A stretch of 64,000 bases of DNA from positions 160,001 through 224,000 of the forward strand of contig CAWBKB010000001.1 of assembly GCA_963789265.1 (NCBI GenBank). Direction: 5' to 3'. Positions 678 through 49,173 of this stretch are shown piece after piece; within the stretch, counting starts at the first letter, position 1, and the number at the start of each line of letters is the position of its first letter. Position numbers and translations under genes: made by a program. A model generated the notes under the pieces. The model was not told where the DNA came from and did no database searches. It saw nothing but the letters and a program-made list of their open reading frames with translations. The stretch is from an uncultured delta proteobacterium (GTDB taxonomy: Bacteria; Desulfobacterota; Desulfomonilia; Desulfomonilales; Desulfomonilaceae).

Positions 678-3600
678 TCAGTTCACTTCCCCCACCAAAA
701 TAAAAGGAGCCCAGTAAAACGGATGGTCGTAACCTGCCTTCCGGATCTCGTCTCGGGCAAGTCTCAGCGCTTCGAGTTTATTCTTCCCTTCCTTGAGATG
801 CTTGAAGAAGCTTTCCACGAGATTGACGGAAGCTGTTTCGGAAACGCTCCACAGGCTCATCAAGACACTTTTTGCGCCTGTGTACTGAAATGCCCGGCCC
901 ATTCCCATCGTGCCTTCACCTGAGATGCGTCGCCCGAGACCTGTCTGACATGCGGTCAGCGCGGCTATGTCCGCGTTGATCTTCAAGCCCATGACTTCAC
1001 TCAATCTCAGGAAACCATCCTGGCCCTTGGGCTCACCGACAAGGCTGAGTACCAGGACAGGCTCTTGTATTCCGGGTAAGTCTTTCCCAAAATATCCGTG
1101 GGTGGCAAATACGAGAGAGCGATACGAAGTGAGGTCTTTCCCGAGAAGGACCGACTTTTTGGCGGTCATGCCTTCATACAGGTCGGTCTTAGAAGGGTCC
1201 GATTTTTTCAAGGCCTTACCGAGTTCATCGGTGAGCGGAAGCCTGGGAAAAGTTAGGCCGCTCTCTGTTTCTATAGACATGGTCAAATCTTTCGGAAGCG
1301 TAGCCAAAAGCCTGTCCTTCTCCTGTTTGGCAAGTTTCACCAGACGCGGATCGTCACTTGAAAAGACAGGATCAACCATTGCTAATAGTTTCTGTCCGGG
1401 CTTCTGCTGCTTCCCGAGGGTTTCTTGCCAGAGTCAGGGCCGTAATTGACTGATAGTAAGAAATCGGATTGCGATCACCGAAGAATTCAGCACCGGAAGT
1501 TTGAGGTCTTTTATTGTCTTTTATGAACTTTCCGCCATCGTTGAAGACAAGCATCTCGAACGGCACGACTCCAAGGGAACCATCAGGGACAATGATAACC
1601 GGAGTATTCTTGGGCAGGTCAGGGAGGATGTCGGAAAGAAGAATGTCTGAAAGTTTCTTGCCGGATTTGAAGTCAAATTGACTGAGTTTCTTTGCGAGAG
1701 AATCATCAGGTCCCAGTTCCATAGGCTGGCGGAATTTTCTGACCAGTTCGTCAATCTCTTTTCTCGGAGTGGGTTTGAAAAGTCCTTTTACGAGATTCTT
1801 GCCTTTCGTGAGGTAAATTATGATTCCCGGATCGGTAACATGATAAGCCAACACCCATTCATTATCTTTCAGGGCGGATTGATCCAAACTCATCGGTTGA
1901 GGATACTTGGTTGCAGCGAAGAGCGGATACTGCTTGCGGAGCATATCCACATGAGCAGTCAGTTTCTGTTTGGCTTCCTTCACCTGAGGTTCAAGGACGG
2001 CTATCACTTCCTTGTTTTGCTTCTGATAAGCCTTCTGGAGATTTTTTGTCAGCGCGGCCAACTCATTCGTGAGTTGAGAGTCCTTGTCACGAATATCCTT
2101 TGGAACATCCGCACCAGCATACTCGCTCCTTTTGGATATGGATTCAGCAAAGATTCTGGCTCTGGTGTACTCGGACTCTTTGATTGCCTCCACGGGGCGG
2201 TTCATCTTTGCAAGTACGTGGGCAAGCCCCTCGTACGGCGCTGTCCGGTAAAATCCACCTATTCTCACATCAAAGAAAGTTTCGTGCTCCGTGGGGTTGA
2301 GGCTTGATCTGAGTTCCTCAGTGTATTCTATAGCCTTTCGGTAATATTCCATTGCATGGGGATTATCACCCATGCCTTCATAAGACATGCCTAGACCATT
2401 GTATGCGGTGAAAAGGTCGTCGGCATTTCTGTTTTGCTCGGCACTTTTCAGAAGGCTCTCATAGGAGTTCTTGGCTGACGGATAATCGGCTTTAACGAGG
2501 TATAGTCTACCAATAGAACTGGGGTAGTTTGCCTCTTTGATGAACGATTCGGCTCTTCCAATCTCACCCTTGTCGAGGTAGAGGTTCCCAATCGAATCTT
2601 TGGGCCATCCTGGGGAGACCCCGATCTTCTGGTAGATTTCCAGCGCCTTTTGAAAACCCGCCAAAGCCTTGTCGTACTCGCCTTGGCTGCGATAGACTTC
2701 TCCCAGATTGGTGAGAGTCACCCCTTCTCCCCTCACGTTCCCGATCTTCCTGCAAATTGCCAGGTCTTTCTCGTAAAACTCCACTGCCTTGGTATACTGA
2801 CCCAACTCCTTATATACGAGCCCCAGACCGCCCAGGCTATTCCCTTCACCATCCACATTTCCCATCTTTATCTTGATCTCCAGAGACTTCTCGTAATACT
2901 CTATTGCCTTCGTGTACTGGCCCCACCTCAGATACACATTCCCCAGGTTGTTCAGGGAGCCTCCTTCGCCCTTAAGGTCCCGGAGCTTCTGGGAGATGGC
3001 AAGGGACTTCTCGTGATACTCCGCCGCCTTCGCATACCGGCCCCAGTCCTCATTCACATTCCCCAGATTCATCAGGGCATCGGCTTCGGTACTCTGATCA
3101 CCGATCTTGCGTGCAATTTCCCGGGACTTCTCGTGATACTCCACCGCCTTCGCATACTGGCCCCAGTCATCGGTACACGACGCCCAGGGCGTTCAGGGAG
3201 ATTCCTTCGTCCTTGCGGTCCCCGAGTTTCCGGAAGATGGCAAGGGACTTCTCTTGATACTCCGCTGCCTTCGCATACTGGCCCAAGTCCCTATACACTA
3301 GCCCCAGGTTGCCCAGTGCATGCCCTTCTCCCCTCACGTTCCCGATCTTCCTGCAGATTGCCCGGGACTTCTCGTAGAATTCCATTGCCTTGGAATTCTG
3401 GCCCCAATTCCAATATACGAGGCCCAGGTTGTTCAGAGCATTCCCTTCACCCTTTACGTCTCCGATCTTTCTCTTGATCGGGAGAGACTTCTCGTAGAAT
3501 TTCACCGCCTTGGAATACCGACCCCAATAGTAATAAACGGTCCCAAGGTTGTTCAAAGCATTCCCTTTGGCCAGGACGTCCCCTGTCTTTCTCGATATCT

Positions 3601-4027
3601 CCAGAGACTTCTCTAAGCATTCCACTGCCTTAGGATACTCACCCAAAGCCTTATATACGATCCCCAGGTTGCCTAGCGTTTGTCCTTCACCCTTTACGTC
3701 TCCGATCTTTCTCTTGATCCCAAGAGACTTCGTGTAGAATTCCACTGCCTTGGTATACTGACCCCTAGCCGCGTAGATCAACCCTACACTGGTGCAAGCT
3801 AATCCGAGATTCTTTCGTTCCTTGACCCTCTGGTAGATGGCTATGGCCTGGAGGAATTTCTGCTCCGCCTTTTTCAGGTCTGCGTTGGATCGGGCTTTTT
3901 GTTGCAGAGCATACGCTTCCTTGTGGAGGCGTATCGCATCCTGCCTGGACTGGGCCATCAGCGGCGATGAAACAAGAATACAAAGTGCGGCTATTATTGC
4001 CGGGACAAGAAAGATTCGCTTGAACAT
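678..4027 (-). CDS. Exported TPR-CHAT protease 1 (signal peptide, about 10 40-aa TPR repeats, CHAT domain); two apparent +1 frameshifts near 3170 and 1420
   Basis: ORFs 3167-4027, 1372-3144 and 678-1379 join colinearly with intact paralog 10659-13286. FATHG and LTACQTG catalytic motifs, HPFYWAPFILVG terminus, AGGAG RBS. Confidence 0.9.
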
Positions 4028-4245: not shown

Positions 4246-4260
4246 ATTTTCGTCTTTCTA

Positions 4261-4557
4261 TCACTTCACTTCCCTCACCAATATGAACTGGAGCCCAGTA
4301 AAACGGATGATCGTAGCCCGCCTTTCTTACTTCATCCCGGCCCAACTTTAATGCCTCCAGTTTGTTCTTCCCTTCCTTGAGATGCTTGAAGAAGCTTTCC
4401 ACAAGATTGACGGAAGCTGTTTCGGGAACGCTCCAAAGGCTCATCAATACACTTTTCGCGCCTGCGTACTGGAAGGCTCGGTCCATTCCCATAGTGCCTT
4501 AACCGGAGATGCGACGAAAACCAACAACAATGCTACCAAAACAGCTTGCTTGCTCAT
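4261..4557 (-). pseudogene. Deleted CHAT gene remnant (signal-peptide-like start joined to the last ~85 CHAT codons, with stop and frameshifts)
   Basis: RRISG*GTMGMDRAFQYAGAKSVLMSLWSV...YDHPFYWAP; catalytic His/Cys region absent. Confidence 0.8.
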
Positions 4558-4586
4558 CCTGGTCACCCCTTGAGAAAATTTGTAGT

Positions 4587-4790
4587 AATACCAATGCGCC
4601 ATCAAACAAGTGACAATCTTAGACAGGATATAGTGGGGCAGGCATCCTGCCTGCCATTCGTCACCCCGGACTTCGATCCGGGGTCCAGTCTGGATGCCCG
4701 TGTACGCGGGCATGACGACAGGCAATCACGCCCGGGCGTGACTGTCCCACTAAAAGCACAGTGTCACTTGTTTGAAAGCGAATCGGCATA
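4587..4790. mobile_element. MITE-like element with TIR core tcaaacaagtgaca, copy 1
   Basis: Imperfect ~29-bp terminal inverted repeats; expanded second copy at 56915-57354. Confidence 0.7.
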
Positions 4791-4891: not shown

Positions 4892-6538
4892 CTATCGGCC
4901 CTTGTGCCAAAACCAGACGGAGTGAGCCACGTCCAATTTGGCTGATTCAATGGCGTTGGACCACTCTTCGAAAGACCGTGTCTTGCGGTCACCACTGGTA
5001 AGCTTGGCCTTTCTCACTATGGCCTTTGAAATTCCCATAATTTCGTCCAGAGTACTACGAGTTTCCTGGGTTACTTCTGCACCTGCGTTCTGATCCCCTC
5101 CATGTTGTTTGATGTCTTTGGCCTCTTTTTCCAGATCTTCGAGCACAGCATTCTTGCTTCGAGACGCCACCACGTAGATTTTTTCTTTGCCTTCAGTATT
5201 ATCAAGCCTGGCCCATGCATCTTTCGCAGGTATCCAGTAAATCTTGCCCCCTTTCAACGGATTCTCCAACCTGTTTTCAGGTGTGAGAAACTCCGTCCCG
5301 GGAAACAACCTAGCGATATTCCCATGTGTGTCGATCTGGTACACGTAAACATAGCTGGTGGTATGGGGCCGGAAACCTATCTGGAAGTTCTGTTGGGAAT
5401 ACAACACAGAACCGTTGGTTATGGTGACGTCGCCGCAGAGAGGATCATTGCATTCTGCTACGCCTTCCGGGGGATTCAAACAAACGGCGTTGGTACACCT
5501 GGGGTCTTGGGCGACAAACCAAACATCCAGTTTGAGAGTGTCGTCCAGGTGCTCAAGGACCGATACGGGAAACTTGCCGCTCACGGCCCCTTCTATCTGA
5601 GGATGCTGCGCGCCCTCGGTTTCGTCCTTTGTCCGCTCATAAACATAATCGTAGATGTTTTGCAGAGTAATGACGCCGGTTCTCTGGATATCCGCTTCGC
5701 CTTTCAATCCCTTCAAGAGATAATAGGTGAAAACGCTATTCGAGAGATTAGGTTTTTCCTGGGAGTATTCGTCTGGTTTACTGGAGCTGAGAATCACCCT
5801 TCCGGTAGCGTCTTTGAACATTTTCATAAATGTTTCCATAGGGTCTTCCAGGGATTTCGTCAGTATTCTGGAGGCGCCGCCTGCGTGGCACGCATCCACA
5901 ATGAGCACGAGCCGCTTGGAATCCACACGGTCGAAGAACTTCAGGCCCGCCATGCTCACCGCGGTAGCGGCCAGATACTTGGGATCGGAATCATAGGTCA
6001 GGAAATAGAACGAGCCCGGTTCTCCCGGATCGGATCCTCCGTGACCGCTGAAAAAAAGAATCACCGAATCGTCCTTCCCAGCCTTCCGCAGATCGCCGTA
6101 AAGATATTTCTCGACTGCTTGTTTGGTGGCTTCGCGGTCGGTTAATATCCTCACGTGAATATTTTTGAAGACTTCTCGCTGGGTTTCAATGAATTGTGCG
6201 AAATCCTTGGCATCTTTCGAGGAGAGGTGGAGTTTTCGTATCGAAGGATCGGAATAGTCGGAAACGCCTACAGCGAGAGCATAAAGATCGCCTTGTCCAA
6301 GGGCCTGTCGAGCCTTGAGCCGCTGTACCACGTGGGATCGCCTGATGGCTTTTGTTCCTGCGTCATCTCCAATGGCAATTCCTTGAAAAGACGTTGCCAG
6401 AAGGGCAACCAAGGCTACGCGAAGGCATGACTGCAGGAGCGGCGTCACCATTGCCCAAAAGTGTAACTGCAATTCGATTGCCTTACTTTGATTCATAATC
6501 CGCGCACCGGCGATCTTTATTCTCTCACTGCTTCTCAT
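4892..6538 (-). CDS. Exported caspase-family (peptidase C14) protein with C-terminal DUF4384-like domain
   Basis: ALAVGVSDY, FFSGHG, IVDACHAG, QHP motifs; YVYVYQIDTHGNIARLFP DUF4384 signature; hydrophobic N-terminus. Confidence 0.88.
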   Translation of the reverse strand: MRSSERIKIAGARIMNQSKAIELQLHFWAMVTPLLQSCLRVALVALLATSFQGIAIGDDAGTKAIRRSHVVQRLKARQALGQGDLYALAVGVSDYSDPSIRKLHLSSKDAKDFAQFIETQREVFKNIHVRILTDREATKQAVEKYLYGDLRKAGKDDSVILFFSGHGGSDPGEPGSFYFLTYDSDPKYLAATAVSMAGLKFFDRVDSKRLVLIVDACHAGGASRILTKSLEDPMETFMKMFKDATGRVILSSSKPDEYSQEKPNLSNSVFTYYLLKGLKGEADIQRTGVITLQNIYDYVYERTKDETEGAQHPQIEGAVSGKFPVSVLEHLDDTLKLDVWFVAQDPRCTNAVCLNPPEGVAECNDPLCGDVTITNGSVLYSQQNFQIGFRPHTTSYVYVYQIDTHGNIARLFPGTEFLTPENRLENPLKGGKIYWIPAKDAWARLDNTEGKEKIYVVASRSKNAVLEDLEKEAKDIKQHGGDQNAGAEVTQETRSTLDEIMGISKAIVRKAKLTSGDRKTRSFEEWSNAIESAKLDVAHSVWFWHKGR

Positions 6539-6634: not shown

Positions 6635-7672
6635 TCAAGAAGATTCCGCTTCAAGCAACAACTCAGCGCCGATTCCGGTTATCCGCGATGGGATTGCGGA
6701 CAACGGCAGCCCCGTCTGAGAAATACTTCCTCGCTGCTCTTTCCCGGCCCGTTTGTAAAGCCTCCCCACTAGAGTGTAACCGCTCTTCGAAGGCAAGATC
6801 TCGAAGATGAGAACATAATTCGCGCCGGTCTTCCCTGCCGCAACTTCTGCTACCGCTGCGCTGTTTTGCGGTAGAGTTTGATCTTTCAGGGAAACCTTCA
6901 ACTTTCCGGGAGAAATGAAATTATAGAATCCTCCCAGCTTGGATGCCAGCGCAATGTCGGCATATATTTTGTCAATCTCTTCCGAGGATAATTTTATGTC
7001 TCGGGGAAGTAGAATAATTAATGCAACCTTCTGTTTAGCGACAAGAGAAGACTTGGGCGCAGTACCTTTGGAAGCCAAAGAAGCTACCTGCCAGGAGACG
7101 CTGCTGAACGCAGGGCTCAAAACAAGGCCTTCCGGTTTGTATGGGAGGACAAGCAAGAGAAGCAGGGCAGCCACGGCCGCGCCGAGGGCCAAAGAAGGGA
7201 AGTGGAAGAACTCAGTGAGTGCGCTCAAGAGATCCCGGATTGTCCGGAGATTCGGTCGACGGGCTTGACCGTACTCCTGCCGCACTGCTGCATGTATCAA
7301 TTCTCCGGTCCGGCGAGGGACAGGGGTTTTAGAAGAGTCAAGATTCTCCTTTTTTAGCTCTCTGATCAGAGAAACTTGTTCCGCGCAATCCGCACACAGC
7401 TCTATGTGATTCCCCACATTCCGCAGAACCTTTTCACCCGTCGCGAAATTGAAAAGCATTTCGGGATCCGGACAAGGTCTGACCGCCTCGGCCAATTGCT
7501 CTTTCTGTTCTTTAATGACGCTCTCCAGTTGTCTCAAATCCGCAAGTTCATGCCTGCAAGAAGAGCATTGCTTCGCGTGTTCCTCGATTTCGGAGGCTTC
7601 CTCGGGGAACTCCGCGGGCGATAGGGCCATCATGAGCCGTTCGGATATGTCGGGTCTTTGGCAAGGTGTCAT
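6635..7672 (-). CDS. Putative anti-sigma factor (two zf-HC2-like HxxxCxxC motifs, one TM helix, periplasmic domain)
   Basis: HAKQCSSC and HIELCADC motifs, TM LALGAAVAALLLLLVLP, directly downstream of the ECF sigma gene. Confidence 0.8.
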   Translation of the reverse strand: MTPCQRPDISERLMMALSPAEFPEEASEIEEHAKQCSSCRHELADLRQLESVIKEQKEQLAEAVRPCPDPEMLFNFATGEKVLRNVGNHIELCADCAEQVSLIRELKKENLDSSKTPVPRRTGELIHAAVRQEYGQARRPNLRTIRDLLSALTEFFHFPSLALGAAVAALLLLLVLPYKPEGLVLSPAFSSVSWQVASLASKGTAPKSSLVAKQKVALIILLPRDIKLSSEEIDKIYADIALASKLGGFYNFISPGKLKVSLKDQTLPQNSAAVAEVAAGKTGANYVLIFEILPSKSGYTLVGRLYKRAGKEQRGSISQTGLPLSAIPSRITGIGAELLLEAESS

Positions 7673-7673
7673 C

Positions 7674-8294
7674 TCAGGTCTCCTCTCTCAGGATCCCGAG
7701 AAGGCGGACAAGACATCTTTTCAGTTGAACCACAAGCGTGTTTGTCTTCACGCCCGTCCTATCGGCAATTTCTTGGAAAGAGATGTCGGAAAAATACCGC
7801 GCCTCGATCAGTTCTTTGCAACGTTTTTCCAGCTTGAACAAAGCCCTTTTCAATGAACCGAGCTCTTCCTGCTCCAGCAGCAGGTCTTCCTGGCTTTTGC
7901 CCGGATTAACACAAATGTGCGCCCCGTGGCCATCCGTTTGTGACTCGATCGGGTCCAAGGCAACCTGAGCTGAGAGTGTCTTCCGTTTGACTGCGGTCTT
8001 CTTCCGGAGCTGGGCAATGCACGTGTTGACCGCCACCTTGTATACGAAGGTGCCAAGATTGCTCTTGAATTTGAAGGTTCTCAAAGACCTGACGATCTCC
8101 GTCATGATCTCTTGGCACACATCTTCGACTTCTTGAGGGTCAAACCTCCATTTTTTCCACCCGGCCACGGACAATACCGTGCCATAATGGCCTTCAAGGA
8201 AATCATCCCAGGCCGTCCGGTCACCGGTGAGACATCCGGCTACGAGGGACCTCTCACGTTCAGCCGGACTGCCGGCCTCAGCCGAGTGCGCCAT
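7674..8294 (-). CDS. ECF-type RNA polymerase sigma-70 factor
   Basis: EVEDVCQEI region 2, TFVYKVAVNTCI, region 4 SFQEIADRTGVKTNTL; start set at the ATG after the upstream stop. Confidence 0.9.
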   Translation of the reverse strand: MAHSAEAGSPAERERSLVAGCLTGDRTAWDDFLEGHYGTVLSVAGWKKWRFDPQEVEDVCQEIMTEIVRSLRTFKFKSNLGTFVYKVAVNTCIAQLRKKTAVKRKTLSAQVALDPIESQTDGHGAHICVNPGKSQEDLLLEQEELGSLKRALFKLEKRCKELIEARYFSDISFQEIADRTGVKTNTLVVQLKRCLVRLLGILREET

Positions 8295-8301
8295 ATCGCG
8301 T

Positions 8302-9348
8302 CTATTTCGAAAGCTTAAATTCAACTCTTCTGTTCTCCGCCCATCCATCTTCGTTATTCTTTGGGGAATACGGTTTATCAGGCCCAAAGCCCTTGGTCGA
8401 TAGTCGGACCGGGTCTATTTTAAAGTTGGTCACCAGGTAGTTCTTTATTGCTTCGGCTCTTTGGGTGGATAGCAACATGTTCTTTCCGTACTGCCCTCTG
8501 TTGTCAGTGTGCCCCTCTATTGATACCGACAGCGTGGGCCGCTCGGCAAGCTCATTTTGCAGAGCTTTTCCGAATTCCCGAAGTTCTGGCAGCGATTCTT
8601 CTTTTATGGCGTACGACCATTCATCAAATAGAATTCTGTTGGTCTGAATGCTGTTTGGGGGTTGGATCTTTCGTATCCATTTCTTTTGTAGTCCCATTTG
8701 CCTTTCTTTACTCAACCGAGCAAAGACATTCTTGGATAAAGGCTTTGCCTCTTGATACGAGGCCGAGTGACGTTGAGCTTCTTGCAACGCCTGCCTCACA
8801 CCAGGGTCGTCCTTTGCGGCCAGTGCCTTCTTGTAGGCGTCCGCGGCCATGCCGAACTGCGCTTGATTGAAAAATAGATCACCCAGGAGCGAATAATAGT
8901 GGGCCCCTTTTTCAGGGCACAATCGCAGAATGGTTTGAACAAAAAGTATCTTGTCTTCCGCCAACATCTGCTTCTCCATGCCTTTTCTCAGCGATCCCAT
9001 GACCTTCTCGGAACAGTTAGTCCCTGGAGTAGTGAGGAGAAGTCCGTCGGTCAGTTTCTCCATCAAAAGACCGTACGCCGCCTTCTTGTCGGGTGGCGCC
9101 ATTCGGTGCTTTTGCTGTAGGACGGCCAGGCACCGCTCAGCTATGTTCCGATTCTGTCCCACAAGTTTGGACAGTGTTGTTTCGGAGGCATATTCATCTT
9201 TCAGCGTCTCGACAAGCTTTGCGTAAAACGAATTGATCGATTTAGCGGCATCCTGTGCCTTGAGATTCGGACAAGGGCTCAACAGAAGGAATGCCGAGAA
9301 AACAATGGCAAAGTGCTTAGCTTTCATGATACCGCACATGAGGCACAA
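8302..9348 (-). CDS. Exported TPR + OmpA-like peptidoglycan-binding protein
   Basis: IEGHTD, NMLLSTQRAEAIKNYL, ENRRVEF motifs; signal peptide. Confidence 0.88.
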   Translation of the reverse strand: MCLMCGIMKAKHFAIVFSAFLLLSPCPNLKAQDAAKSINSFYAKLVETLKDEYASETTLSKLVGQNRNIAERCLAVLQQKHRMAPPDKKAAYGLLMEKLTDGLLLTTPGTNCSEKVMGSLRKGMEKQMLAEDKILFVQTILRLCPEKGAHYYSLLGDLFFNQAQFGMAADAYKKALAAKDDPGVRQALQEAQRHSASYQEAKPLSKNVFARLSKERQMGLQKKWIRKIQPPNSIQTNRILFDEWSYAIKEESLPELREFGKALQNELAERPTLSVSIEGHTDNRGQYGKNMLLSTQRAEAIKNYLVTNFKIDPVRLSTKGFGPDKPYSPKNNEDGWAENRRVEFKLSK

Positions 9349-9363
9349 ATCTCCTCTGTTAGA

Positions 9364-10473
9364 TTAGCGCTCGCCTGCGCGCACGCTGAGAATCTCAACG
9401 CGTCTGTTGGCCCGTCTCCCTGCCGTAGTTCTGTTTGTGGTCCATGCGCGGGAATCACCGGCTCCTACCGTCGAGAGAAGGGAAGACGGCACTCCGCCTG
9501 TGGTGACCAGGTATTCCTTCACTGCCCGCGCACGTCTCAAGGAAAGAGACTGGTTATAATCCTTGGACCCCGTTGCGTCGGAATGGCCTTCAATGATGTA
9601 CCGCCCTGATCTAAGAGGATCACTTTTCAGGCTGACGGCGAGTTCGTCAAGCTGTCTTTTTGTCCTGGAGGAAAGAGCAGCCGATGAAATCGGGAACGTC
9701 ACTTCGTGCAGTCTCAGTCTCGACTGGAGCTTTGAGAATTGTGGACACATGCACATGAGATTCTCTTGTTCTGTCCCCAGTCGGTCCACAATTTCAGGAG
9801 AGAGCAAGAACTTTGGATTGTCTTGGGCAATCCGGCCTCCGGCCAGTTCGAGAAGTTTCTTTGCGTGTGTGCTTTGCGGATCTATCGCGAGGATCCTCTC
9901 GAAGTAGGGCAGACTTCGCCTATACAAACCGGCATTAAGGAAAGTTTCACCCAGCCCAAGAAGGGCTTCGGAGCCATTCCTTTCAATGTTGAGGGCTTTC
10001 TCATAATTCATCACCGCATCGTCGAATCTCCCCATTTTTCTGTTTATGTCTCCGAGATTGACGTAAGCGGCTCCGTGCGAAGGGCACAATTTGACTACCC
10101 GCGCAAATTTCTTGAGTTTTTCTTCCAGGACAAGGGCTTTCAGCCCTCTTTGATAAATCTTTTCAGCAAGGGAACAATTTTTTTTACCTTTTGCAAGACC
10201 TATTAGCTCTTCAAGCTCCTGAGCGACGATCGCGTACGTGTCAGTTTTCTGTCGGTCTTGCCCCCCCTGCATTTTCTTATGAATGACATCAAGGCATTTT
10301 ACAGCCAGATTGGGTTTTGCTCGAACCAGCGCCTCCAACTTGGAGGTTCGGTCATTCTTTAGCGCACTCAAGAAATCTTTGTAGAACTCGTTCACTCCGC
10401 CGGCATGAGCGTAGGTAGAACAGATCAATATATTAAGTACGATTATGATTGCCTGTTCGCTCTGCATCCTCAT
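9364..10473 (-). CDS. Exported TPR + OmpA-like peptidoglycan-binding protein (paralog)
   Basis: IEGHSD, NQSLSLRRARAVKEYL, ANRRVEI motifs; TPRs; signal peptide. Confidence 0.88.
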   Translation of the reverse strand: MRMQSEQAIIIVLNILICSTYAHAGGVNEFYKDFLSALKNDRTSKLEALVRAKPNLAVKCLDVIHKKMQGGQDRQKTDTYAIVAQELEELIGLAKGKKNCSLAEKIYQRGLKALVLEEKLKKFARVVKLCPSHGAAYVNLGDINRKMGRFDDAVMNYEKALNIERNGSEALLGLGETFLNAGLYRRSLPYFERILAIDPQSTHAKKLLELAGGRIAQDNPKFLLSPEIVDRLGTEQENLMCMCPQFSKLQSRLRLHEVTFPISSAALSSRTKRQLDELAVSLKSDPLRSGRYIIEGHSDATGSKDYNQSLSLRRARAVKEYLVTTGGVPSSLLSTVGAGDSRAWTTNRTTAGRRANRRVEILSVRAGER

Positions 10474-10658
10474 TTGGAACTTCCCTTCTCTTGAAGCCAA
10501 CGTACAGTATAGTCCCACTTACTATAGACATTAGTAGGAAATTGATCGCCATGTTGACAACAATCTGTACACCACAGAGGCACAGAGTTCACAGAGAAAA
10601 CCATTATTTTTCTTTCTCAGTGTCCTCTGTGTCTCTGTGGTTAATTCTTGTCTTCCTG

Positions 10659-13286
10659 TCAGTTCATTTCGCCCACCAGAATGAACGGTGCCCAATAAAA
10701 CGGATGGTCGTACCCGGCCTTCCGTATCTCGTCTCGGGCAAGTCTCAAAGCCTCCAGTTTGTTCTTCCCTTCCTTGAGATGCTTGAAGAAGCTTTCCACA
10801 AGATTGACCGAAGCTGTTTCGGAAACGCTCCAAAGGCTCATCAATACACTTTTCGCGCCTGCGTACTGAAACGCTCGGCCCATTCCCATCGTGCCTTCGC
10901 CGGAGATGCGTCTTCCCAGACCGGTTTGGCACGCGGTAAGCGCGGCTATATCGCAGTTGATCTTCAAACCCATGACTTCACTCAATCTCAGGAAACCATC
11001 CTGACCTTTCGGTTCACCGACAAGGCTAAGAACCAGCACCGGCTCTTGTATTCCGGGCAGATCTTTCCCGGTATACCCATGTGTGCCGAACACTAGAGAG
11101 CGGTACGGAGTGAGGTCTTTCCCGAGGAGGACGGACTTCTTGGAGGTCATGCCTTCATACAGGTCGGTCTTAGAAGAGTCGGTTTTCTTCAGGGACTCGC
11201 CAAGTTCAGCCGTAAGCGGAAGCCTGGGAAAAGTTAGGCCGCTCTCAGTTTCGATAGACATGGTGAGGTCTTTCGGGAGCGTAGCCAAAAGCCTGTCCTC
11301 CTCCTGTTTGGCAAGTTTCACCAGGCGTGGATCGTCGGAAGAGAAAACAGGGTCCACCATTGCAAGCAGTTTTTCGCCGAGTTTATGTTGTTTTCCAAGG
11401 GTACGTGCGAGAGTCAGGGCCGTGATCGACTGGTAATAAGAAATGGGATTGCGATCTCCGAAGAATTCGTCACCGGAGGTTTGAGGTCTATTGCCGTTCG
11501 TTACCATCTTTCCCCCCTCATTGAGGACGAGCATCTCGAACGGTACCACGCCGAGGGAACCGTCGGGGACGATGATTACAGGAGTATTCTTGGGCAGGTC
11601 AGAGAGTATGTCGCTGAGGAGAAGGTCAGAGAGTTCCTTTCCGGATTTAAAATCAAAGGACTCGAGCTTCTTTGGGAGAGAATCGTCAGGCCCAAGTTCC
11701 ATGGGCTGACGGAATTGCATGACCAGTTCATCCACTTCTTTTCTTGGAGTCGGCTTAAACAGCCCCTTTACGAGATTCTTGCCTTTCGTGAGGTAAATTA
11801 TGATGCCTGGATCGGTAACATGATAAGCCAGCACCCATTCGTTATCTTTCAGGGCGGATTGATCCAAACCCATCGGTTGAGGATATTGGGTCGCGGCAAA
11901 GAGCGGATACTGTTTGCGGAGCATGTCAATGTGCGCGGCAAGGTTTTCTTTTGCCGTTTTCACCTGGGGCTCAAGCGCGGCTATGACCTCTTTGTTCTGC
12001 TTCTCGTATGCTTTCTGGAGATTCTTGCTTAGTCCTGCGAGCTGCTCATTGAGATGAGAATCTTTTTCCAGCACGTCCTGTGGAATGTGCGGAGCTGACC
12101 CTTCTGCCCGCTTTGAGATGCGTTCGGCAAACATACGGGCTCTCGTGTATTCGGATTCCTTTAAGGCTTCCAGAGGCTTGTTGAGTTTCACCAGTACTCG
12201 GGCAAGTCCCTCGTACGGAGCAGTCCTGTAAAAGCCGCCGACCCTGACATTGTAGAACTCCGCTTTCTCGGCAGGGTTCAGGCCGGCTCTTAAATCTTCG
12301 GTACGATCAATGGCTTTGCGAAAACAGTCCGCGGCCGCGGGGTTATCTCCCATCTTCTCGTATGTCATTCCCAGGCCGGTATAGGAAATGAAGAGATCAA
12401 TTGAATTCTGGTTCTTCTCAGCACTTTGACGAAGTTTTTCGTAACACGCTCTTGCCTTCCCATACTCTGATTTGAGCAGGCTGAGCCTTCCCAGGGAAGC
12501 ACTGTAATTGCCTTCCCTTACGAAGGGCTCAGCTTTCTGAACGTCTCCCATGTCTAGGTAGAGATTACCGATACAATCCTTGGGCCAATTCGCCGGAACT
12601 CCGATCTTGAGGTAGATTGCCAGCGCCTTTTGAAAATTTGTCAGTGCTTTGTCGGACAGGCCCGAGTGCTGACATACCAGCGCCAGGTTGCCCAGGATTT
12701 GCCCTTCGGTCTTCACATCCCCGATCTTCCTCGTGATCTCTAGCGACTTATTGTAGAATTCCACTGCCTTGGCATACTGACCCCAGTTCAAATATATGAT
12801 CCCCAGGTTGCTCAGGGTGGCCCCTTCACCTTTGACGTCTCCGATCTTTCTCTTAATAGCAAGAGACTTTTCGAAGAATTCCACTGCCTTGGCATACTGA
12901 CCCCAATCGTAATATACGGTCCCCAGGTTGCCCAGGGTTTGCCCTTCGCCTTGTACGTCCCCGATCTTTCTCGTGATAGCCAGAGCCTTCTCGTCGAATT
13001 CCACTGCCTTGGAATACTGACCCCATTGCTGGTAGATGATCCCCACATTGCCGTAGGCCAATCCGAGATTCTTTCGCTCCCCGACCCTTTGATAAATTGC
13101 AATGGCCTGGAGGAATTTCTGTTCTGCCTGTTTCAGGTCTGCGTTGGATCGGCCTTTCTGTTGCAAGGCATACGCTTCCTTGTGGAGGCGTATCGCGTCC
13201 TGCCTGGATTGAGCCAACAATGGCGATGAAACAAGAATACAAAGTGCGGCTATTATTGCCGGGACAATCACGATTCGTTTGAACAT
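10659..13286 (-). CDS. Exported TPR-CHAT protease 2 (intact, about 4 long TPR repeats)
   Basis: Signal peptide MFKRIVIVPAII, FGTHG and LTACQTG dyad, HPFYWAPFILVG. Confidence 0.93.
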   Translation of the reverse strand: MFKRIVIVPAIIAALCILVSSPLLAQSRQDAIRLHKEAYALQQKGRSNADLKQAEQKFLQAIAIYQRVGERKNLGLAYGNVGIIYQQWGQYSKAVEFDEKALAITRKIGDVQGEGQTLGNLGTVYYDWGQYAKAVEFFEKSLAIKRKIGDVKGEGATLSNLGIIYLNWGQYAKAVEFYNKSLEITRKIGDVKTEGQILGNLALVCQHSGLSDKALTNFQKALAIYLKIGVPANWPKDCIGNLYLDMGDVQKAEPFVREGNYSASLGRLSLLKSEYGKARACYEKLRQSAEKNQNSIDLFISYTGLGMTYEKMGDNPAAADCFRKAIDRTEDLRAGLNPAEKAEFYNVRVGGFYRTAPYEGLARVLVKLNKPLEALKESEYTRARMFAERISKRAEGSAPHIPQDVLEKDSHLNEQLAGLSKNLQKAYEKQNKEVIAALEPQVKTAKENLAAHIDMLRKQYPLFAATQYPQPMGLDQSALKDNEWVLAYHVTDPGIIIYLTKGKNLVKGLFKPTPRKEVDELVMQFRQPMELGPDDSLPKKLESFDFKSGKELSDLLLSDILSDLPKNTPVIIVPDGSLGVVPFEMLVLNEGGKMVTNGNRPQTSGDEFFGDRNPISYYQSITALTLARTLGKQHKLGEKLLAMVDPVFSSDDPRLVKLAKQEEDRLLATLPKDLTMSIETESGLTFPRLPLTAELGESLKKTDSSKTDLYEGMTSKKSVLLGKDLTPYRSLVFGTHGYTGKDLPGIQEPVLVLSLVGEPKGQDGFLRLSEVMGLKINCDIAALTACQTGLGRRISGEGTMGMGRAFQYAGAKSVLMSLWSVSETASVNLVESFFKHLKEGKNKLEALRLARDEIRKAGYDHPFYWAPFILVGEMN

Positions 13287-14076
13287 GGCAGCCTCATGAA
13301 ACATCCTTGAGTGGTTTCCCTCATGAACCAGCGTGAACCTTACCTTCGGATCATATGAGTCGGTGTCCAAAATTACTTAGTCGCATTTGCGAACGAAACG
13401 TGACACCGGATAATGGCGGATAGAATCCCCTATAGACAAACAGCGACTATTCGAGCCACCCTCATCAACTGAGCCAGCGCCATGTCCGATCATGAAGACC
13501 CCCTCCAACATCGGAATCGGATTGATTGCAGTCCTTAAAATGCGGAATGTTCCAAGTATGCGCTTAGTCAGACTTAATTGTAAAGAATTATTGCTGGATA
13601 CTGGCGGACCGTCGCGTAAGATGGCGAAGTACATGTATTTGTCTCCCTCGGCATATCTGTGTCACCTGCCTTGTCCGTTTGCGACTAACGAAAACAATGG
13701 CGAGACTTCGACGAACGGGGAGTCGGCAAATGAACAAGCTGGTTGCCGTGATGAGATTTGCGGCAAGGATTTTAGCCGCGATCCTGATCTCGCCCGCTGA
13801 CAGGGCGTTCGTGGATCGGGCCGGCTTTGGGCGCGCCTACAGGATACGTACAACACACGGTAGCCTGTACTTCTCTTGGAGAGAGGTTCTTTGACAAGTA
13901 TCCGTTTGGCTGGCCTCAGGGTTTGTCAAGCGCATAATTCCGTTCGAGGATTACGTCCCTGGAGCCGTTCACTAGTTCGGTAGCATTTCGGTTGAGCAAT
14001 GGGCAATGATCGACTTTGCCAGACGCTTCGACCCGAAGCCTTTTCGCACGGACCCTTTTTGCCGGACCGTTTACAA

Positions 14077-14781: not shown

Positions 14782-14885
14782 TAGCGCCTCTCTTACTCAC
14801 TCAAAATGGGTCCAACTTTAGAGATTGTCTTCAGGACTCATAGATGCATGGAAACAGTACGATAGCCTTTTCGGGTACTGGCAGA

Positions 14886-16448: not shown

Positions 16449-16620
16449 CGTTTCCCCCTCTTCAACCACGGCGTCGTTATGTAAGAAGCGTGAGAGCCAA
16501 CGTCCGCTCAATGTTTCAGTATATTGAACGCCAATATCCTGGTCAATAACTATTTTGGATTCGCTTTCAGGCACCCACCCATTTGCTTGAAAGTTCGGTT
16601 GATTTTCCAGATGCGAGGTA

Positions 16621-39330: not shown

Positions 39331-39648
39331 ATCGGCACTAGAATTGTGCGATGGAGTGCTGAGATTAAACTTTTGTTCGGAACAAATTAAAAGAGAGTCA
39401 GAATGTTAAATGGATGAATGGTTGCTTGACGCCGGACAGTTTATCGACCGGCATTCCGGACCACGAGCAGTCATGGAAATCTGGGGTATGTTACTCAATT
39501 CCCGGACATGGTCGAGATAACCATAATCTTGTCAGAATGTTGTTAGCGTCCCCTGCCGCCGGATGCGTTGACAATTTGCAAACGCACTCCATATTAATTT
39601 GTAAAAGTGCTCATAAAGCAGAGGAGGCGGCGCGGCACGCCAACTACC

Positions 39649-40554
39649 ATGAACAGAGTTTTCGTTCAGCATGCTGTTCGTAATCTTTTCCACTCGGTCG
39701 TGTTAATGGCCTGCATGTTCCTCGTCTGCGGCATGGTCGGGTGGGTGTTCTGGGGAGTGGACGGACTCGTATATTTTAGTACCCTGACCGCAGTTGGGCT
39801 TCTCGTCAGTTTGAGGGTTTCTCCGCGGCTCATTTTCAAAATGTACGGGGCTGTACCGATCCGGGAACAAGAGGCGCCACACCTTTTGCTAATGATGAAG
39901 AAACTCGCTCGAAGGGCCGGACTTCCTGAGAGGCCGCAGCTATATTACATTCCGAGTCAAACTCCCAATGCCTTTGCCGTGGGCAGCCGGCGAACGGGGG
40001 CCATTGCAATCACCAAGGGCTTGCTGACCGGATTCACGCCACGAGAACTCCAAGGGGTGTTGGCTCACGAGATGGGACACCTGCGCAGGAACGACGGATT
40101 GGTTATGAGTCTGGCGGTTTCCGCAGGTCAGTTGGTCGGCATTATGTCCTGGATCGGAAAGGTAATGGTGCTCATCCATCTCCCCCTATATGTGTTCGGA
40201 GGATACCAACTCCCCTGGCTTCCGATCGTCATTCTTATCTTTGCCCCGCCTATCACAGTTTTACTCCAGTTCGCTTTGTCACGAACGCGGGAATTTGAAG
40301 CTGATTTAGAAGCAGTAAGGTCCACGGGCGATCCCATAGGGTTGGCCTCCGCTCTGCAAAAGCTCGAAGGTCTCTCGGGGAATTGGTTCGAACGGCTGTT
40401 TCTACAGAGAACAAAGGCGCGCGAATCATTCTTGTTTTGGACGCATCCCCCAACGGAGGAAAGGATACGGCGTCTTTTGGAGCTTGAAAGATCTCTGGTC
40501 GAATCGGTTGCTGTCCACGAAAACGGAGCACCATTCCACGGCGGTCGTACATAG
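39649..40554 (+). CDS. htpX: HtpX-like M48 zinc metalloprotease
   Basis: PNAFA, HEMGH, SRTREFEAD, THPPTEERIRRL. Confidence 0.88.
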   Translation: MNRVFVQHAVRNLFHSVVLMACMFLVCGMVGWVFWGVDGLVYFSTLTAVGLLVSLRVSPRLIFKMYGAVPIREQEAPHLLLMMKKLARRAGLPERPQLYYIPSQTPNAFAVGSRRTGAIAITKGLLTGFTPRELQGVLAHEMGHLRRNDGLVMSLAVSAGQLVGIMSWIGKVMVLIHLPLYVFGGYQLPWLPIVILIFAPPITVLLQFALSRTREFEADLEAVRSTGDPIGLASALQKLEGLSGNWFERLFLQRTKARESFLFWTHPPTEERIRRLLELERSLVESVAVHENGAPFHGGRT

Positions 40555-44538: not shown

Positions 44539-45132
44539 ATGGCCCAGGAAAAACAAACAATCCATCGCTGTCCTTGGGTGGATCTCACAAAGCCGGATTA
44601 CGTCGACTATCACGATAAGGAGTGGGGCGTCCCTGTCCATGACGATCGCCTCATATTCGAATACCTCATCCTTGAAGGCGCTCAAGCCGGTCTGAGCTGG
44701 TATACCGTGCTGAGAAAACGGGAGAATTATCGGATCGCCTTTGATCGATTCGACCCTCAAAAGATCGCAAAATATGACGAGAAAAAGGTGCAGGAGCTTC
44801 TTGCAAATTCGGGCATTATCAGAAACAAAGCCAAGATACTCGCGGCGATCAACAATGCCCGAGGATTCCTGGAGATCCGGAAAGAATTTGGAACCTTTGG
44901 TGCGTACATTTGGCGATTTGTTGATGGAAAACCAATTGTAAACAATATCATACAGTTAAAGGATTATCCTGCTACCAGTCGAGAGTCGGATGCGCTGAGC
45001 AAAGACCTGGTGCGAAGAGGCTTCAAGTTTGTCGGATCAAAGGTATGTTATGCCCACATGCAGGCAACCGGAATGGTGAACGACCATACGATTGCTTGCT
45101 TTCGAAGGCAGGAGATCCTTGAGGGATACTAA
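44539..45132 (+). CDS. tag: DNA-3-methyladenine glycosylase I
   Basis: RCPW, YHDKEWG, LEGAQAGLSW, GFKFVG, MQATGMVNDH. Confidence 0.95.
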   Translation: MAQEKQTIHRCPWVDLTKPDYVDYHDKEWGVPVHDDRLIFEYLILEGAQAGLSWYTVLRKRENYRIAFDRFDPQKIAKYDEKKVQELLANSGIIRNKAKILAAINNARGFLEIRKEFGTFGAYIWRFVDGKPIVNNIIQLKDYPATSRESDALSKDLVRRGFKFVGSKVCYAHMQATGMVNDHTIACFRRQEILEGY

Positions 45133-45202
45133 GCAAGTTGGCTGGGCCAAAGCAATTTTCCATGATATGGCCTACAAAAGTTCAGAGATCCAGAGGACTG
45201 CC

Positions 45203-48200
45203 ATGTTCAAACCAAGCAGCCTCATGCCGCTAATGGTAGCTGCGCTTTGTGTTCTTATGTCGTCCTCCTCGCCGGCCCAATCGAAGGATGACGGAGATCG
45301 ATACCTCCAGAAAGGGATACAATTGTACGAGAAGGCCCACTCCCATGAAGACCGGCAGAAGGCTGCTGACAAGTTCAAAGAGGCGCTCGGCATATACAGA
45401 AAGATAGGGGAGGTAAAGGCAGAAGGGCATGCTCTGAGCCACCTGGGTCGGGTCCAAGAGGCCCAGGGCGAGTACGCCAAAGCGGTGGACTCTTACGAAA
45501 AGGCACTGGAAATTGCCCAAAAGATCGGAGACGTAAAGGCTAAAGGGCGTAATCTGAACAACCTGGGTCGTGTCTATGCTGATGAGGACCAGTATGGCAA
45601 AGCGGAGGATTATTGCAAAAAGTCCTTGGTGATGGCGAGAAAGATCGGAGATGGACAGACTGAAGGGTATGCTTTGCACAATTTGGGTCGCGTTCATGCG
45701 GCCCGGGATCAGTATGCCCAGGCGGTGGCATATTACAAAAAGTCCCTGGAGATTAAAAGTAAGATTGGGGACATAAAGGCTGAAGGAGGCACCCTGAACA
45801 ACTTGGGGAGCGTTTATGTGACCCAGGGCGAGTATGCCAAAGCGGAGGACGCTTACGAAAAAGCATTGGATGTCGCCCGAAAGATCGGAGATGGACAGAC
45901 TGAAGGGTATGCTCTCTTCAACCTGGGCCGCGTTCAAGAGGTCCAGGGCGAGTATGCCAAGGCGGTGGGGTATTTTGAGAAATCCGTGGAAATTGCTACA
46001 AAGTTCGGAGACACAAAGCTTGAAGGGACTCGCCTAGACGCTTTGGGTATCGTCTACGCAGATTTGGGTCAGTATGCCAAGGCAGTGGAATACCATGAGA
46101 AGTCCTTGGATATTGCGCAAAAGGTCGGGGACGCAAAGGCTGAAGGACGTACCCTGAGCAACCTGGGTCTCGTGTATAAGGATTGGGGTCAGTATCCTAA
46201 GGCGGCGGAATATTTCCAGAAGTCCGTGGAAATTGCCGGAAAAATCGGTGACGTACAGACTGAAGGGCATGCTTTGGGCAACTTGGGGATCGTCCATGAG
46301 GATTTGGGTCAGTATACCAAGGCGGTGGAATACCACAAGAGGTCCCTGGAGATTGCGCGAAAAATCGGAGACATACGGTCTCAAGGGCATACTTTGGGCA
46401 ACTTGGGTGTCGTGTATGAGGATTTGGGTCAATATGCTAAGGCGGTGGAATACCAGAAGAAGTCCCTGGACATTGCGCGAAAGATCGGAGACGTGAAGGC
46501 TGAAGGGGAAGCCTTGGGCAACCTCGGTCTGGTCTATCAGCATTGGAGTCAATATGCCAAGGCGTCGGAATACTATAAGAAGTCTTTGGAGATTGCCGGA
46601 AAAATCCAGGACGTTCGGTCTGAAGGAGATGCACTGGGCAACCTGGGGCTCCTCTATGGAGATTGGGGCCAATATGCCAAGGCGGCGGAATACCATGAGA
46701 AGTCCTTGGGGAAAGCGCGAAAGATTGGGGACGTACAGTCTGAAGGACTTACACTGGATAATCTTGGTGTCGTCTATGCGCACTGGGGTCAATATGCGAA
46801 GGCAGAGAAATATTTCGAGAAATCCTTGAAGATTGCGCGAAAGATCGGAGACGTACGTTTCTGAAAACCATGATCTGGTCAGCCTGGGCCAGGTCTATGA
46901 GAATTGGGGTCAATATGCCAAGGCGGTAGAATACCATGAGAAGTCCTTGGAAATTGCACGAAAGATCGGGGACGTACGGTCTGAAGGACTTACACTGGGC
47001 AACCTGGGTCTTGTCTTCGAGGCTTGGGGTCAGTATGCCAAGGCGGAAGAGTATTTCGAGAAGTCCTTGGAGATTACGCGAAAGATCGAGGATTTACAGA
47101 ATGAAGGACATGCTCTGGATCACTTGGCGGACGTCTATCATGCTCTCGGGAAAGATGATAGGGCTCTATCCACCTTTCAGCAGGAGCTTGAGATTTATTC
47201 GAAGATCGGTGTCCCCGTGGCAGGCGTCAAGGACTCGATGGGCAATCTCTATCTCGATATGGGGGATGTTAAGAATGCTGAGCCTCTTCTGAAAGAAGGC
47301 AGTTTCTTGTCGTCACTAGGCAGGCTCCAGCTTGTCAAATCAGACTATCAGGGTGCGCAAAAATATTATGAAAGAGTTCGGCATGTCACTGAAAAGAACC
47401 GGGACGTGGACGGCCTCTTTATCGCATATACCGGTCTTGGCACAGCGTACGAGGGAATGGGCGACGACAAAAAGGCGGAAGATTGTTTTGAAAAAGCCGT
47501 GAACCTGACGGAAGACTTGAGATCGAGCCTTCCGATGTCTCAGAGAGAGACTTTCTTTGATGTAAGAATCGGTGGTTTCCTCAGGACAGCACCCTACGAT
47601 GGACTTGCCCGAGTGAGGATAAAGCTGAACAAACCGCTGGAAGCATTCAAGGACTCTGAATACACCAAGTCTCGCGTGTTTGCCGAGGCAATGGCGAGAT
47701 GGTCGGACAAGACCGACTTTAACATTCCCGCGGACGTGCTGAAAACGGACAAAGAACTGAACGATCAACTTGCAGCCTTGAAGAAAAAGAGACAAGAGGC
47801 TTACGAAAAGGCCAATCAGGAGGTCATCTCGGTCATTGAGCCCCAAGTTCAAGAAATGGAAGACCAACTCCAGGCCCATATCATGATGCTGCGCGAAAAA
47901 TATCCCCTTTTTGCCGCGACCAAGTACCCTGAACCCATGGATCTTAGCGAAACGGGTCTCAGGGAGAACGAGTGGGTATTGACGTACCATGTAACCGATC
48001 CAGGAATAATCATCTACCTTACCAAAGGTAAGGAGATCGTTAAGGCTCTGTACAAACCCATCCCCAGGGGGGATTTGGACGGCCTGATTCTCAAGATGAG
48101 AAAACCTCTCGAAATAGTTCCTGGGCGGGACAACTTTGAAAAGAAGTTGCAGTCGTTCGACCTTGTGACCGGAAAGAAGCTCTCAGACTTGCTTCTTTCA

Positions 48201-49173
48201 GATATGCTTAGATATTTGCCTCCTCACATCCCGCTTCTTGTAGTGCCGGACGGTTCCCTTGGTATCTTTCCTCTTGAGATGCTTGTACCTGAACAACAAC
48301 GGTATAATAAAGACGGACAAAAACCTTCCTTACATTTCTGGTGCAGAATTTTTCGGAGACCGAAATCCACTTTCTTATTGCCAGTCCGTGACGGCACTCA
48401 CGTTGTCCAGGATTTATGCGAAGAGCAAAGGTTCTCCGGCCGGTTTGCTAGCCATGGCCGACCCGGTCTTCCAGGTAAAGGACGTCCGAGCGGCACAGGC
48501 TCACGAAACGAAAGAGCCCCAGGGAGTCCTTGCATCGCTGTTCAGGCGTTTGAACCTCATGGCGGCCGAGGGGAACAAACACATGGGCGGTTTGAGCTTC
48601 CCGAGGCTGCCTCTTACAAGAAAGCTCGCCAAAGCGTTGGCTGCGATGTACAGAGGGGATTCAGCCGTGTACACGGGATTTGCCGCAAGTAAAAGCAACT
48701 TCCTGGACAACATCGCTCCACACCTGAATCGATACAATGAGGTAGTCTTTGCTACTCATGGTTACCTCGGCAAGGATTTACCCGGGATCATGGAACCTGT
48801 ACTGGTCCTGACTCTCATTCCTCCCGGCACGGATGGTTACCTCAAGATGACTGAAGTGATGGGCTTGAAAATGAATGCTGACATTGTCGCGTTGACGGCC
48901 TGTCAAACAGGTCTGGGTAAACGACTGGCCAGTGAAGGAACGATGGGAATGGGCCGGGCTTTCCAATACGCCGGGGCACGGAGAGTACTGATGAGCTTGT
49001 GGTCCGTGTCGGAGTATACGTCGGTGAAATTGGTGAAGCGATTCTTCGAGCACACGAAGTCGGGCAAGACGAAGTTGGAGTCCCTTGACCTTGCTCGCAA
49101 AGAGATCCGAGCAGAGGGTTTTGATCATCCATTCTTTTGGGCTGCTTTCATTCTCGTGGGGGAAGAGAACTGA
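45203..49173 (+). CDS. Exported TPR-CHAT protease 6 (about 15 TPR repeats; +1 frameshifts near 46860 and 48288)
   Basis: Three ORFs join colinearly; FATHG and LTACQTG; HPFFWAAFILVG. Confidence 0.9.

Follow-up and report, generated by a model that had tools for sequence, protein, structure and literature searches.

Leucine for a conserved helix alpha1 glutamate, coupled to a change near the catalytic histidine, in a clade of putatively exported TPR-CHAT proteases with a possible preference for non-basic P1 residues

CHAT is among the commonest caspase-like domains of bacteria, but only a few of these enzymes have known substrate rules, namely HetF, separase, three Craspases and a single gasdermin protease. 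HetF of Anabaena cuts PatU3 at R117|S118 and requires the arginine, and separase cuts after an arginine that is read by Asp2151 downstream of the catalytic cysteine, a position held by Lys670 in Sb TPR-CHAT. The bonds that Craspases cleave are L|D, M|K and A|S (PMC11106740): Di-Csx29 mainly recognises Met427 at P1, and P1 Leu407 is essential for the Sb Craspase, in which Asp543 contacts the catalytic dyad. P1 Leu247 is essential for a gasdermin-associated CHAT protease of Runella, which its authors called surprising for a caspase-like enzyme. Here we analyse six TPR-CHAT genes in a stretch of 64,000 nucleotides, hereafter the window, from an uncultured delta proteobacterium of the Desulfomonilaceae (assembly GCA_963789265.1, contig CAWBKB010000001.1, positions 160,001 to 224,000 of the forward strand). 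All six carry leucine in place of a conserved glutamate on helix alpha1 of the CHAT domain. A literature search found no described S1 determinant for CHAT and no account of the putatively exported subfamily to which these genes belong.

Within clan CD, S1 specificity is described as coming only from helix alpha1/loop L1 and loops L4 and L5 (PMC4357240, McLuskey and Mottram). The same review places the P1-binding acid on helix alpha1 (Asp95 in TbMCA2, Asp365 in MALT1 and Asp163 in RgpB), assigns the S1 Asp of TbMCA2 and MALT1 at the Cys-2 position, two residues before the catalytic cysteine, and has the L5 Glu of MALT1 binding P1 Arg; self-segments of gingipain and MALT1 are reported to enter S1. 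The initial annotation of the window had proposed that its CHAT proteases switched from Arg to Met. The underlying notion that CHAT means Arg is incomplete, as HetF cuts R|S but Craspases and the Runella protease cut after Leu, Met or Ala. A hydrophobic P1 is therefore no new specificity for CHAT; a clan CD protease that cuts after Met is already known in the family, which holds both Arg and hydrophobic cutters.

Matches to the Pfam CHAT family (PF12770) score 137–182 bits at the six loci, against a cut-off of 24, and all six have a long N-terminal TPR array. On the minus strand lie C1 (678–4027; Pfam CHAT 1.3e-39, with TPR matches), C2 (10659–13370; 3.4e-46), C3 (16621–19521; 3.2e-50), C4 (20885–23729; 7.5e-52) and C5 (24705–28153; 2.3e-53), and on the plus strand lies C6 (45092–49173; 7.8e-43, with Pfam TPR). 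C2 and C3 are uninterrupted. C4 is split at about 21967 in the assembly, C5 has one frame shift near 25900, and C6 is read in the pieces 45092–46864, 46833–48692 and 48259–49173. C1 is likewise in pieces, namely 678–1379 (CHAT C-terminal part), 1372–3144 (TPR, linker and CHAT N-terminal part) and 3167–4027 (signal peptide and TPR). The profile is covered from position 2 or 3 to 289 in C2 to C5 (3–289 of 289 in C2) and piecewise in C1 and C6 owing to the splits. C2 likely starts at the methionine of MFKR at 13286, and the protein then runs from a signal-peptide-like segment through TPR repeats and a helical linker to the CHAT domain. The His/Cys dyad is intact in every copy, as initially annotated (THGY and LTAC(Q/E)TG, 6/6). 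With residues given in C2 domain numbering (Leu183, His224, Cys274 and Glu311), the dyad consists of His224 (11079–11081, minus strand) and Cys274 in LTACQTG (10929–10931, minus strand), both invariant across 81 aligned sequences and preceded by strands 216–222 and 268–272. Over the last 233 residues C1 and C2 are 94% identical and C3 and C4 99%, while C5 is 82% identical to C3 and C6 52–60% identical to the others. Judged by these identities the six copies are paralogues in three lineages, so they are not independent instances, yet the motif pattern is still far beyond chance. Across the whole genome (6.06 Mb, 9 contigs) there are 17 PF12770 matches, mostly of the same type.

The helix alpha1 motif reads RLPLTDEL in C1 (1221–1244, minus strand, Leu codon 1221–1223), RLPLTAEL in C2 (11202–11225, minus strand, Leu183 codon 11202–11204, in helix 178–190), RLAKTTEL in C3 (17164–17187, minus strand, Leu codon 17164–17166) and again in C4 (21428–21451, minus strand, Leu codon 21428–21430), RLEKTTEL in C5 (25248–25271, minus strand, Leu codon 25248–25250) and RLPLTRKL in C6 (48604–48627, plus strand, Leu codon 48625–48627). 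These are the six motifs that the initial annotation had quoted, each ending in Leu. They were aligned to a hidden Markov model (HMM) of ordinary CHATs, seeded with a protein of the same genome (L001, which reads LKPLPGARREISEIV); 120 relatives were listed and the 80 with a complete domain were used. The alpha1 column is Glu in 78 of these 80 ordinary CHATs, and all six window copies align to the profile here without gaps and with high posterior probability, the Leu falling on the Glu column. The L-P-x-x-x-x-E that had been annotated as the CHAT consensus is thus borne out, as is the place of the Leu in it: this conserved, non-catalytic motif has Leu for Glu in 6/6 copies.

The same replacement is found well beyond the window. 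Among 148 aligned sequences of the best 150 cluster representatives from a search with the C2 domain, the column contains L134, I6, M4, F2, V1 and N1 and no acid, and is hydrophobic in 147/148 with the single Asn as exception. A second search, started from the most distant relative, added 99 further proteins with L78, I12, M4, V2, S1 and two Glu (96/99 hydrophobic); both Glu stem from alignments that landed in the TPR region. The adjacent 'position 7' was considered as the site of a stand-in acid. This column is variable in the 148 aligned relatives (E41, Q22, D17, R14, K11 and others), and since it is not conserved, with only E41 and D17 acidic, a Glu there is unlikely to substitute. When ordinary CHATs were compared with the three C14 caspases of the window by hhalign, the CHAT Glu paired with the helix-1 Asp of N-P-x-x-D and both dyad residues paired as well (probability 52.9%, E 1.4e-4). 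The annotated match of the CHAT acid to the metacaspase S1 Asp holds as a homology argument, given this pairing and the alpha1 location in the clan CD review. All three C14 caspases keep the Asp (NPVND, NPAHD and SSKD), again as annotated.

The columns of 79 acid-type and 238 hydrophobic-type domains were compared; of 329 domains, ten incomplete ones were dropped and two belonged to neither class. Fifteen columns separate the two types. At the alpha1 column, Glu in 100% of acid-type domains gives way to Leu in 88% of hydrophobic-type domains, and four residues before the catalytic histidine (His-4) a His present in 94% of the former is replaced by Val in 69% of the latter. Glu and His-4 occur together in 74 of the 79 acid-type sequences, and His is found at this position in only 1 of the 238 hydrophobic-type sequences. 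At Cys-2 all ordinary CHATs (100%) have Ser, where 82% of this clade have Thr, and the acid on L5 is Asp in 81% of ordinary CHATs and Glu in 80% of this clade. C2 has Val four residues before His224 (SLVFGTHG), where ordinary CHATs have His, and Thr at Cys-2; its L5 acid, which the clade has kept, is Glu311 in LWSVSE (10818–10820, minus strand). The window copies as a group read (S/E)(L/I/V)VF(A/G)THG, LTAC and WSV(S/A)E. The coupled Glu/His-4 pair is the new and most specific point of this analysis and goes beyond what had been annotated.

In a representative search with the C2 domain, 92,675 cluster representatives passed E ≤ 0.001, and 2,253 passed E ≤ 1e-30. When each species was represented by a single genome, relatives were encoded in 357 stretches. 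All of the best 80 among these (74 loci) come from metagenome-assembled genomes that bear the labels Desulfomonilaceae, Desulfomonile, Syntrophaceae-type, Thermodesulfobacteriota or 'delta proteobacterium', and paralogues are numerous within a genome. Searching outward added the labels Elusimicrobia, Desulfobacterales, Eremiobacterota, Firestonebacteria, Ratteibacteria and Brocadiae. The acid/hydrophobic state changes 3 times by parsimony on a FastTree tree of 319 domains. As far as these searches and the tree go, the Leu trait marks a large, mostly signal-peptide-bearing TPR-CHAT clade in several phyla, heavily expanded in Desulfomonilaceae, and is not special to the window.

A mechanism can be proposed on this basis. 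The six loci encode paralogous TPR-CHAT cysteine proteases, putatively exported by a Sec signal peptide, in which an N-terminal TPR array and a helical linker precede two halves, the first pseudo-caspase and the second active and caspase-like. In their clade the polar pair of alpha1 Glu and His-4, nearly invariant in ordinary CHATs, is replaced by Leu and Val (or Ile/Leu), Ser by Thr at Cys-2, and a predicted helical insertion of 35–45 residues is present. If, as homology with metacaspases, paracaspase and gingipain suggests, the S1 pocket has the alpha1 acid as its floor, the pocket would no longer favour Arg/Lys and would accept a neutral or hydrophobic P1, as in Craspase (Leu, Met, Ala) and the Runella protease (Leu). 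The proteases would presumably act in the periplasm and be activated through their TPRs. Because the alpha1 acid of metacaspases, paracaspase and gingipain forms the S1 floor, a non-basic P1 is predicted for the window CHATs, and we put the probability that their S1 pocket favours neutral or hydrophobic P1 residues at roughly 0.5. Leu in the place of Glu probably means that there is no cutting after arginine.

Several observations weigh against this prediction. That Leu183 lines S1 is deduced by homology, and the hhalign pairing of CHAT Glu and C14 Asp has a probability of only 52.9%. Invariant acids are kept elsewhere, namely Glu311 on L5 (WSVxE) and Glu285 in G-E-G after the Cys, and the L5 column aligns to Ser in the Leu-cutting Sb Craspase and is Glu in this clade. 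As these L5 and G-E-G acids are kept, as the L5 Glu of MALT1 binds Arg and as the Sb Craspase has Ser on L5, a basic P1 may still be accommodated. Separase Asp2151, which reads P1 Arg, is not on alpha1 and aligns to Val315 here and to Ala in ordinary CHATs. Asp543 of the Sb Craspase lies 42 residues before the catalytic His, within 1–2 positions of the alpha1 column; if the two are equivalent, a Leu P1 is compatible with an acid at this site. Csx29, the Runella protease and HetF were set beside the clade by their published P1 residues.

In an alternative reading, P1 specificity is set elsewhere. The coupled swap agrees no better with a pocket floor that went from polar to hydrophobic than with the exchange of a polar pair in the interior for a hydrophobic one, and the change from Glu-His to Leu-Val could be purely structural. 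Alpha1 Glu and His-4 would here be a polar pair buried between helix and sheet, exchanged for a hydrophobic pair perhaps to pack the insertion, with P1 set by Glu311/Glu285 and possibly still basic. The change from Glu/His to Leu/Val is tightly coupled, as is typical when a buried pair is swapped, acids are retained on L5 and after the Cys, P1 Arg of separase is read by an Asp downstream of the Cys, and the Sb Craspase does without the L5 acid. Against such compensation stand the homology of the column to the S1 acid on helix alpha1 in metacaspase, paracaspase and gingipain, and also the difference between the clades at Cys-2, the S1 Asp position of TbMCA2 and MALT1. We consider purely structural compensation rather unlikely.

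The clade further differs from ordinary CHATs in the loop between strand beta1 (ADPVF in C2) and helix alpha1. The spacing from beta1 to the L-P motif has a median of 14 residues in ordinary CHATs and is mostly 35–45 residues in this clade. In C2 the insertion holds DLTMSIE (11250–11270, minus strand); its equivalents lie at 1269–1289 (C1), 17212–17229 (C3), 21476–21493 (C4), 25296–25313 (C5) and 48553–48570 (C6). The loop strings of the initial annotation were all recovered (DLTMSIE twice, KLMSIK three times and NLMAAE once), 8–11 residues upstream of the alpha1 motif. Clade-wide there is a semi-conserved insertion motif, LMxA(V/I)E, in which the dipeptide is followed by x-A-(I/V)-E-(D/E). 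An [LFIVM]M dipeptide occurs in 94 of 139 parsed clade loops, 11 or 14 residues from the loop end, against 3 of 60 ordinary loops. The annotated view that the ordinary loop usually carries an R-G/R-S site did not hold, R[GS] being present in just 15/60 ordinary CHAT loops, compared with 42/139 in the clade.

Two AlphaFold models were made of the C-terminal region. The first, of the last 363 residues of C2 with a 15-sequence alignment, has a predicted local distance difference test score (pLDDT) of 84.4, and residues 154–170 fall under 50. The second, of the last 363 residues of C3 with an 81-sequence alignment, has a mean pLDDT of 91.3; here three short helices make up the insertion, with E-K-L-M-S-I-K-D-Q-T as helix 161–170 at a moderate confidence (pLDDT of about 70–75). 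Given the helix predicted from the deeper alignment and the i, i+1, i+3, i+4 hydrophobic pattern, the insertion motif most likely acts as a structural or regulatory lid, an amphipathic helix packed next to the active site; it is probably not a cleavage loop.

This bears on the original proposal that pocket and loop changed together to give enzymes that cut after Met, with the insertion Met as an (auto)cleavage or pseudo-substrate site that matches a hydrophobic pocket. The hydrophobic alpha1 column and the dipeptide do co-occur clade-wide (94/139 against 3/60), the motif recurs in members from distant phyla as NLMRAVED, and it is over the motif segment that the shallow model has its lowest confidence. 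Di-Csx29 moreover recognises a P1 Met, and gingipain and MALT1 provide precedents for self-segments that enter S1 (PMC4357240). Set against this are the helix predicted at 161–170 with a hydrophobic spacing that suits an amphipathic helix, and the inconstancy of the Met itself, for which some members have L, V or C; 54/139 clade loops have no dipeptide in their last 22 residues, and C1 and C2 read L-T-M rather than L-M. That pocket and loop both differ between the same two clades is correct, yet with about 3 state changes on 319 tips the two traits split as in one event and do not covary independently, and the covariation test is therefore without power. Autocleavage at the Met loop is thus weakly supported, and we regard cutting specific for Met as a distinctly unlikely outcome. 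A broader form would combine a polar S1 floor made hydrophobic with the Leu-Met helix as a built-in pseudo-substrate or activation-cleavage site, the clade then consisting of periplasmic zymogen-like Met/Leu proteases and the alpha1/His-4 pair acting as a code for Arg against hydrophobic P1 across all CHATs; we offer it as a long shot.

That most copies of an expanded family are decaying and the motifs are functionless relics is very improbable, since, although 4/6 genes are interrupted and a seventh CHAT C-terminus between C1 and a C14 caspase gene (4247–4618, minus strand; PF12770 match at contig 164277–164513) is a remnant with an internal TAA, two copies are uninterrupted, no copy has lost a catalytic residue or a family motif, unrelated genes of the window are split likewise, and a contig of another sequencing run lacks the extra base in C4. 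When the junctions were read in three frames, C1, C4, C5 and C6 were each found to be broken by one or two single-base shifts (two in C1). The genes for a C14-Sel1 protein (14886–16574), a CHASE2-adenylate/guanylate cyclase (31276–33149) and a GH65 glycoside hydrolase (61060–63430) are divided into overlapping frames like four of the CHAT genes, although they are unrelated to them; this makes systematic indel errors of single bases, introduced by the assembly, a more likely cause than decay of the genes.

Contigs from two other runs of one soil study were aligned to 8300–28299. One contig (depth 2) lacks one base at 21967, and omission of this base opens a frame of 947 residues in C4. At least two other junctions lie at short homopolymers, and one C6 junction lies at a TTT run. 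No difference is listed in the contigs at the C5 junction near 25900, where cover at the exact place is not established. On this thin evidence the splits of the four CHAT genes are probably assembly errors. One contig of another run also lacks one base at 14873, between the genes for an M15 dipeptidase and the Sel1 frame, which makes this intergenic site a second candidate assembly indel. One contig of another run passes over 120 bases of the C5 TPR array (27547–27668, with a 30-base ambiguity), which may be a copy-number variant of a TPR unit or a repeat collapse.

The window copies start with signal-peptide-like segments such as MFKRIVIVPAIIAALCILVSSPLLAQS, and by a hydrophobicity heuristic an N-terminal hydrophobic 12-mer is present in 159/183 full-length relatives. 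The TPR-CHAT clade would accordingly be exported by a Sec signal peptide, with action in the periplasm as the likely consequence. The C14 caspases of the window comprise a C14 caspase-like protein with DUF4384 (SSKD; 4892–6538, minus strand; Pfam 7.1e-17), a C14 caspase with Sel1 repeats (NPAHD; 28394–30259, plus strand; Pfam 1.3e-44) that has a signal-peptide-like N-terminus, and its Sel1-bearing paralogue, a C14 caspase by Pfam (NPVND; 14886–16574, minus strand), which is read in the frames 15762–16574 and 14886–15734, the Sel1 frame 14886–15734 beginning with sequence that continues the caspase domain of the protein at 28394–30259. Signal-peptide-like N-termini were also seen in the protein at 4892–6538 and in a DUF4384 protein at 30529–31263, and several neighbours are similar. 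Between C1 and C2 (6635–10518, minus strand) lie a sigma factor of the extracytoplasmic function (ECF) type (7674–8387), a weak anti-sigma-like frame with a Cys-rich N-terminus (6635–7672) and two OmpA-domain proteins, one of them with TPRs. This block recalls the sigma-TPR-CHAT link of DdvS/DdvA, yet the sigma factor recurs in only 4/74 related loci.

Papain-like C1 and M48 peptidase genes are found at 35654–36658 and 39607–40554, with a PadR regulator alongside. Ankyrin repeats are uncommon in free-living bacteria; two ankyrin-repeat proteins are encoded at 50011–51201 and 53313–55391 (minus strand), of which one also has bacterial SH3 domains and the other a MORN-like repeat. Taken as a whole, the region resembles a collection of exported proteases together with repeat proteins. 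The flanks of the 74 related loci contain a C14 homologue in 9, 2 and 4 cases, according to which of the three caspases was the query, OmpA-TPR in 19, Sel1 in 11 and an ECF sigma factor in 4, and no conserved partner gene or tight operon was found across these loci. PADLOC, with which six proteins were scanned, matched no CHAT model and gave TPR and caspase matches only.

Taken together, the observation of the Leu is sound at the sequence level and widens into a coupled replacement of Glu/His by Leu/Val, the mark of a large clade of putatively exported proteases. The functional reading is plausible, at about even odds. If it is true that the alpha1-Glu/His-4 pair separates Arg from hydrophobic cutters, it would supply a sequence rule with which to annotate thousands of proteins, and the rule would aid the choice of proteases that are orthogonal, for use in tools of the Craspase style. 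The clade is moreover a pointer to regulated proteolysis of a caspase-like kind that takes place outside the cytoplasm in anaerobes; for this setting, DdvA is the only case studied.

No match at E ≤ 10 was returned by phmmer for the C2 CHAT domain against PDB, and a 15-sequence profile of the subfamily gave 4 weak matches there with no CHAT protein among them. The ordinary-CHAT profile reached DdvA (best match), Craspase, Csx29 and separase, in alignments that skip residues 534–562 of Sb TPR-CHAT and with them the Craspase alpha1 column. Foldseek ranked Craspase TPR-CHAT/Csx29 first (E 8e-11 to 1e-8), followed by DdvA, separases, gingipains and SAVED-CHAT, with a probability of 1.00 to Craspase, Csx29, DdvA, separase and gingipain; the predicted structure is one of a caspase-haemoglobinase fold like that of separase and Craspase.

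Craspase/Csx29 is accordingly the best structural match (8d9f_A, E 8.4e-11; 7y9x_B) and shares the order of TPR, pseudo-caspase half and active CHAT half. It cuts after non-basic residues by experiment, whereas the window proteins are only predicted to do so. Craspase is cytoplasmic and bound to Cas7-11, unlike the window proteins with their signal-peptide-like N-termini, and about 29 residues between aligned blocks of Sb TPR-CHAT leave no room for a long L1 insertion. No Cas family was found in the 42 window frames scanned with Pfam, the rest of the genome not having been searched for Cas7-11. The Runella protease shares with the window proteins the CHAT family and a non-Arg P1, which here is a prediction; a gasdermin gene adjoins the Runella enzyme, whereas no gasdermin family was found among the Pfam-scanned window frames.

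DdvA is the only characterised extracytoplasmic TPR-CHAT protein and is matched by Foldseek (8rot_A, E 8.5e-10), and an ECF sigma factor and a weak anti-sigma-like frame are also present in the window. DdvA differs in having a cytoplasmic zinc anti-sigma domain and a transmembrane helix, and is reported to lack a three-helix motif of the active site; the window proteins start with a cleavable-looking signal peptide that is followed directly by TPRs. A layout of the DdvA type was not found in C2 or C3, whose TPRs start about 40 residues after the hydrophobic segment and which have no match to an anti-sigma family. Four residues before the catalytic His, DdvA has Asp and not Val.

HetF and separase belong to the same CHAT/separase fold family. 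Both cut after Arg, while the clade is without the alpha1 Glu of ordinary CHATs, including those of cyanobacteria, the comparison with HetF being by published cleavage only. Metacaspases, orthocaspases and paracaspase (C14B) have the same fold, and their L-x-x-x-x-x-[D/E] at the start of helix alpha1 aligns with CHAT; as reviewed (PMC4357240), they keep the acid and cut after Arg/Lys, whereas the CHAT clade has Leu.

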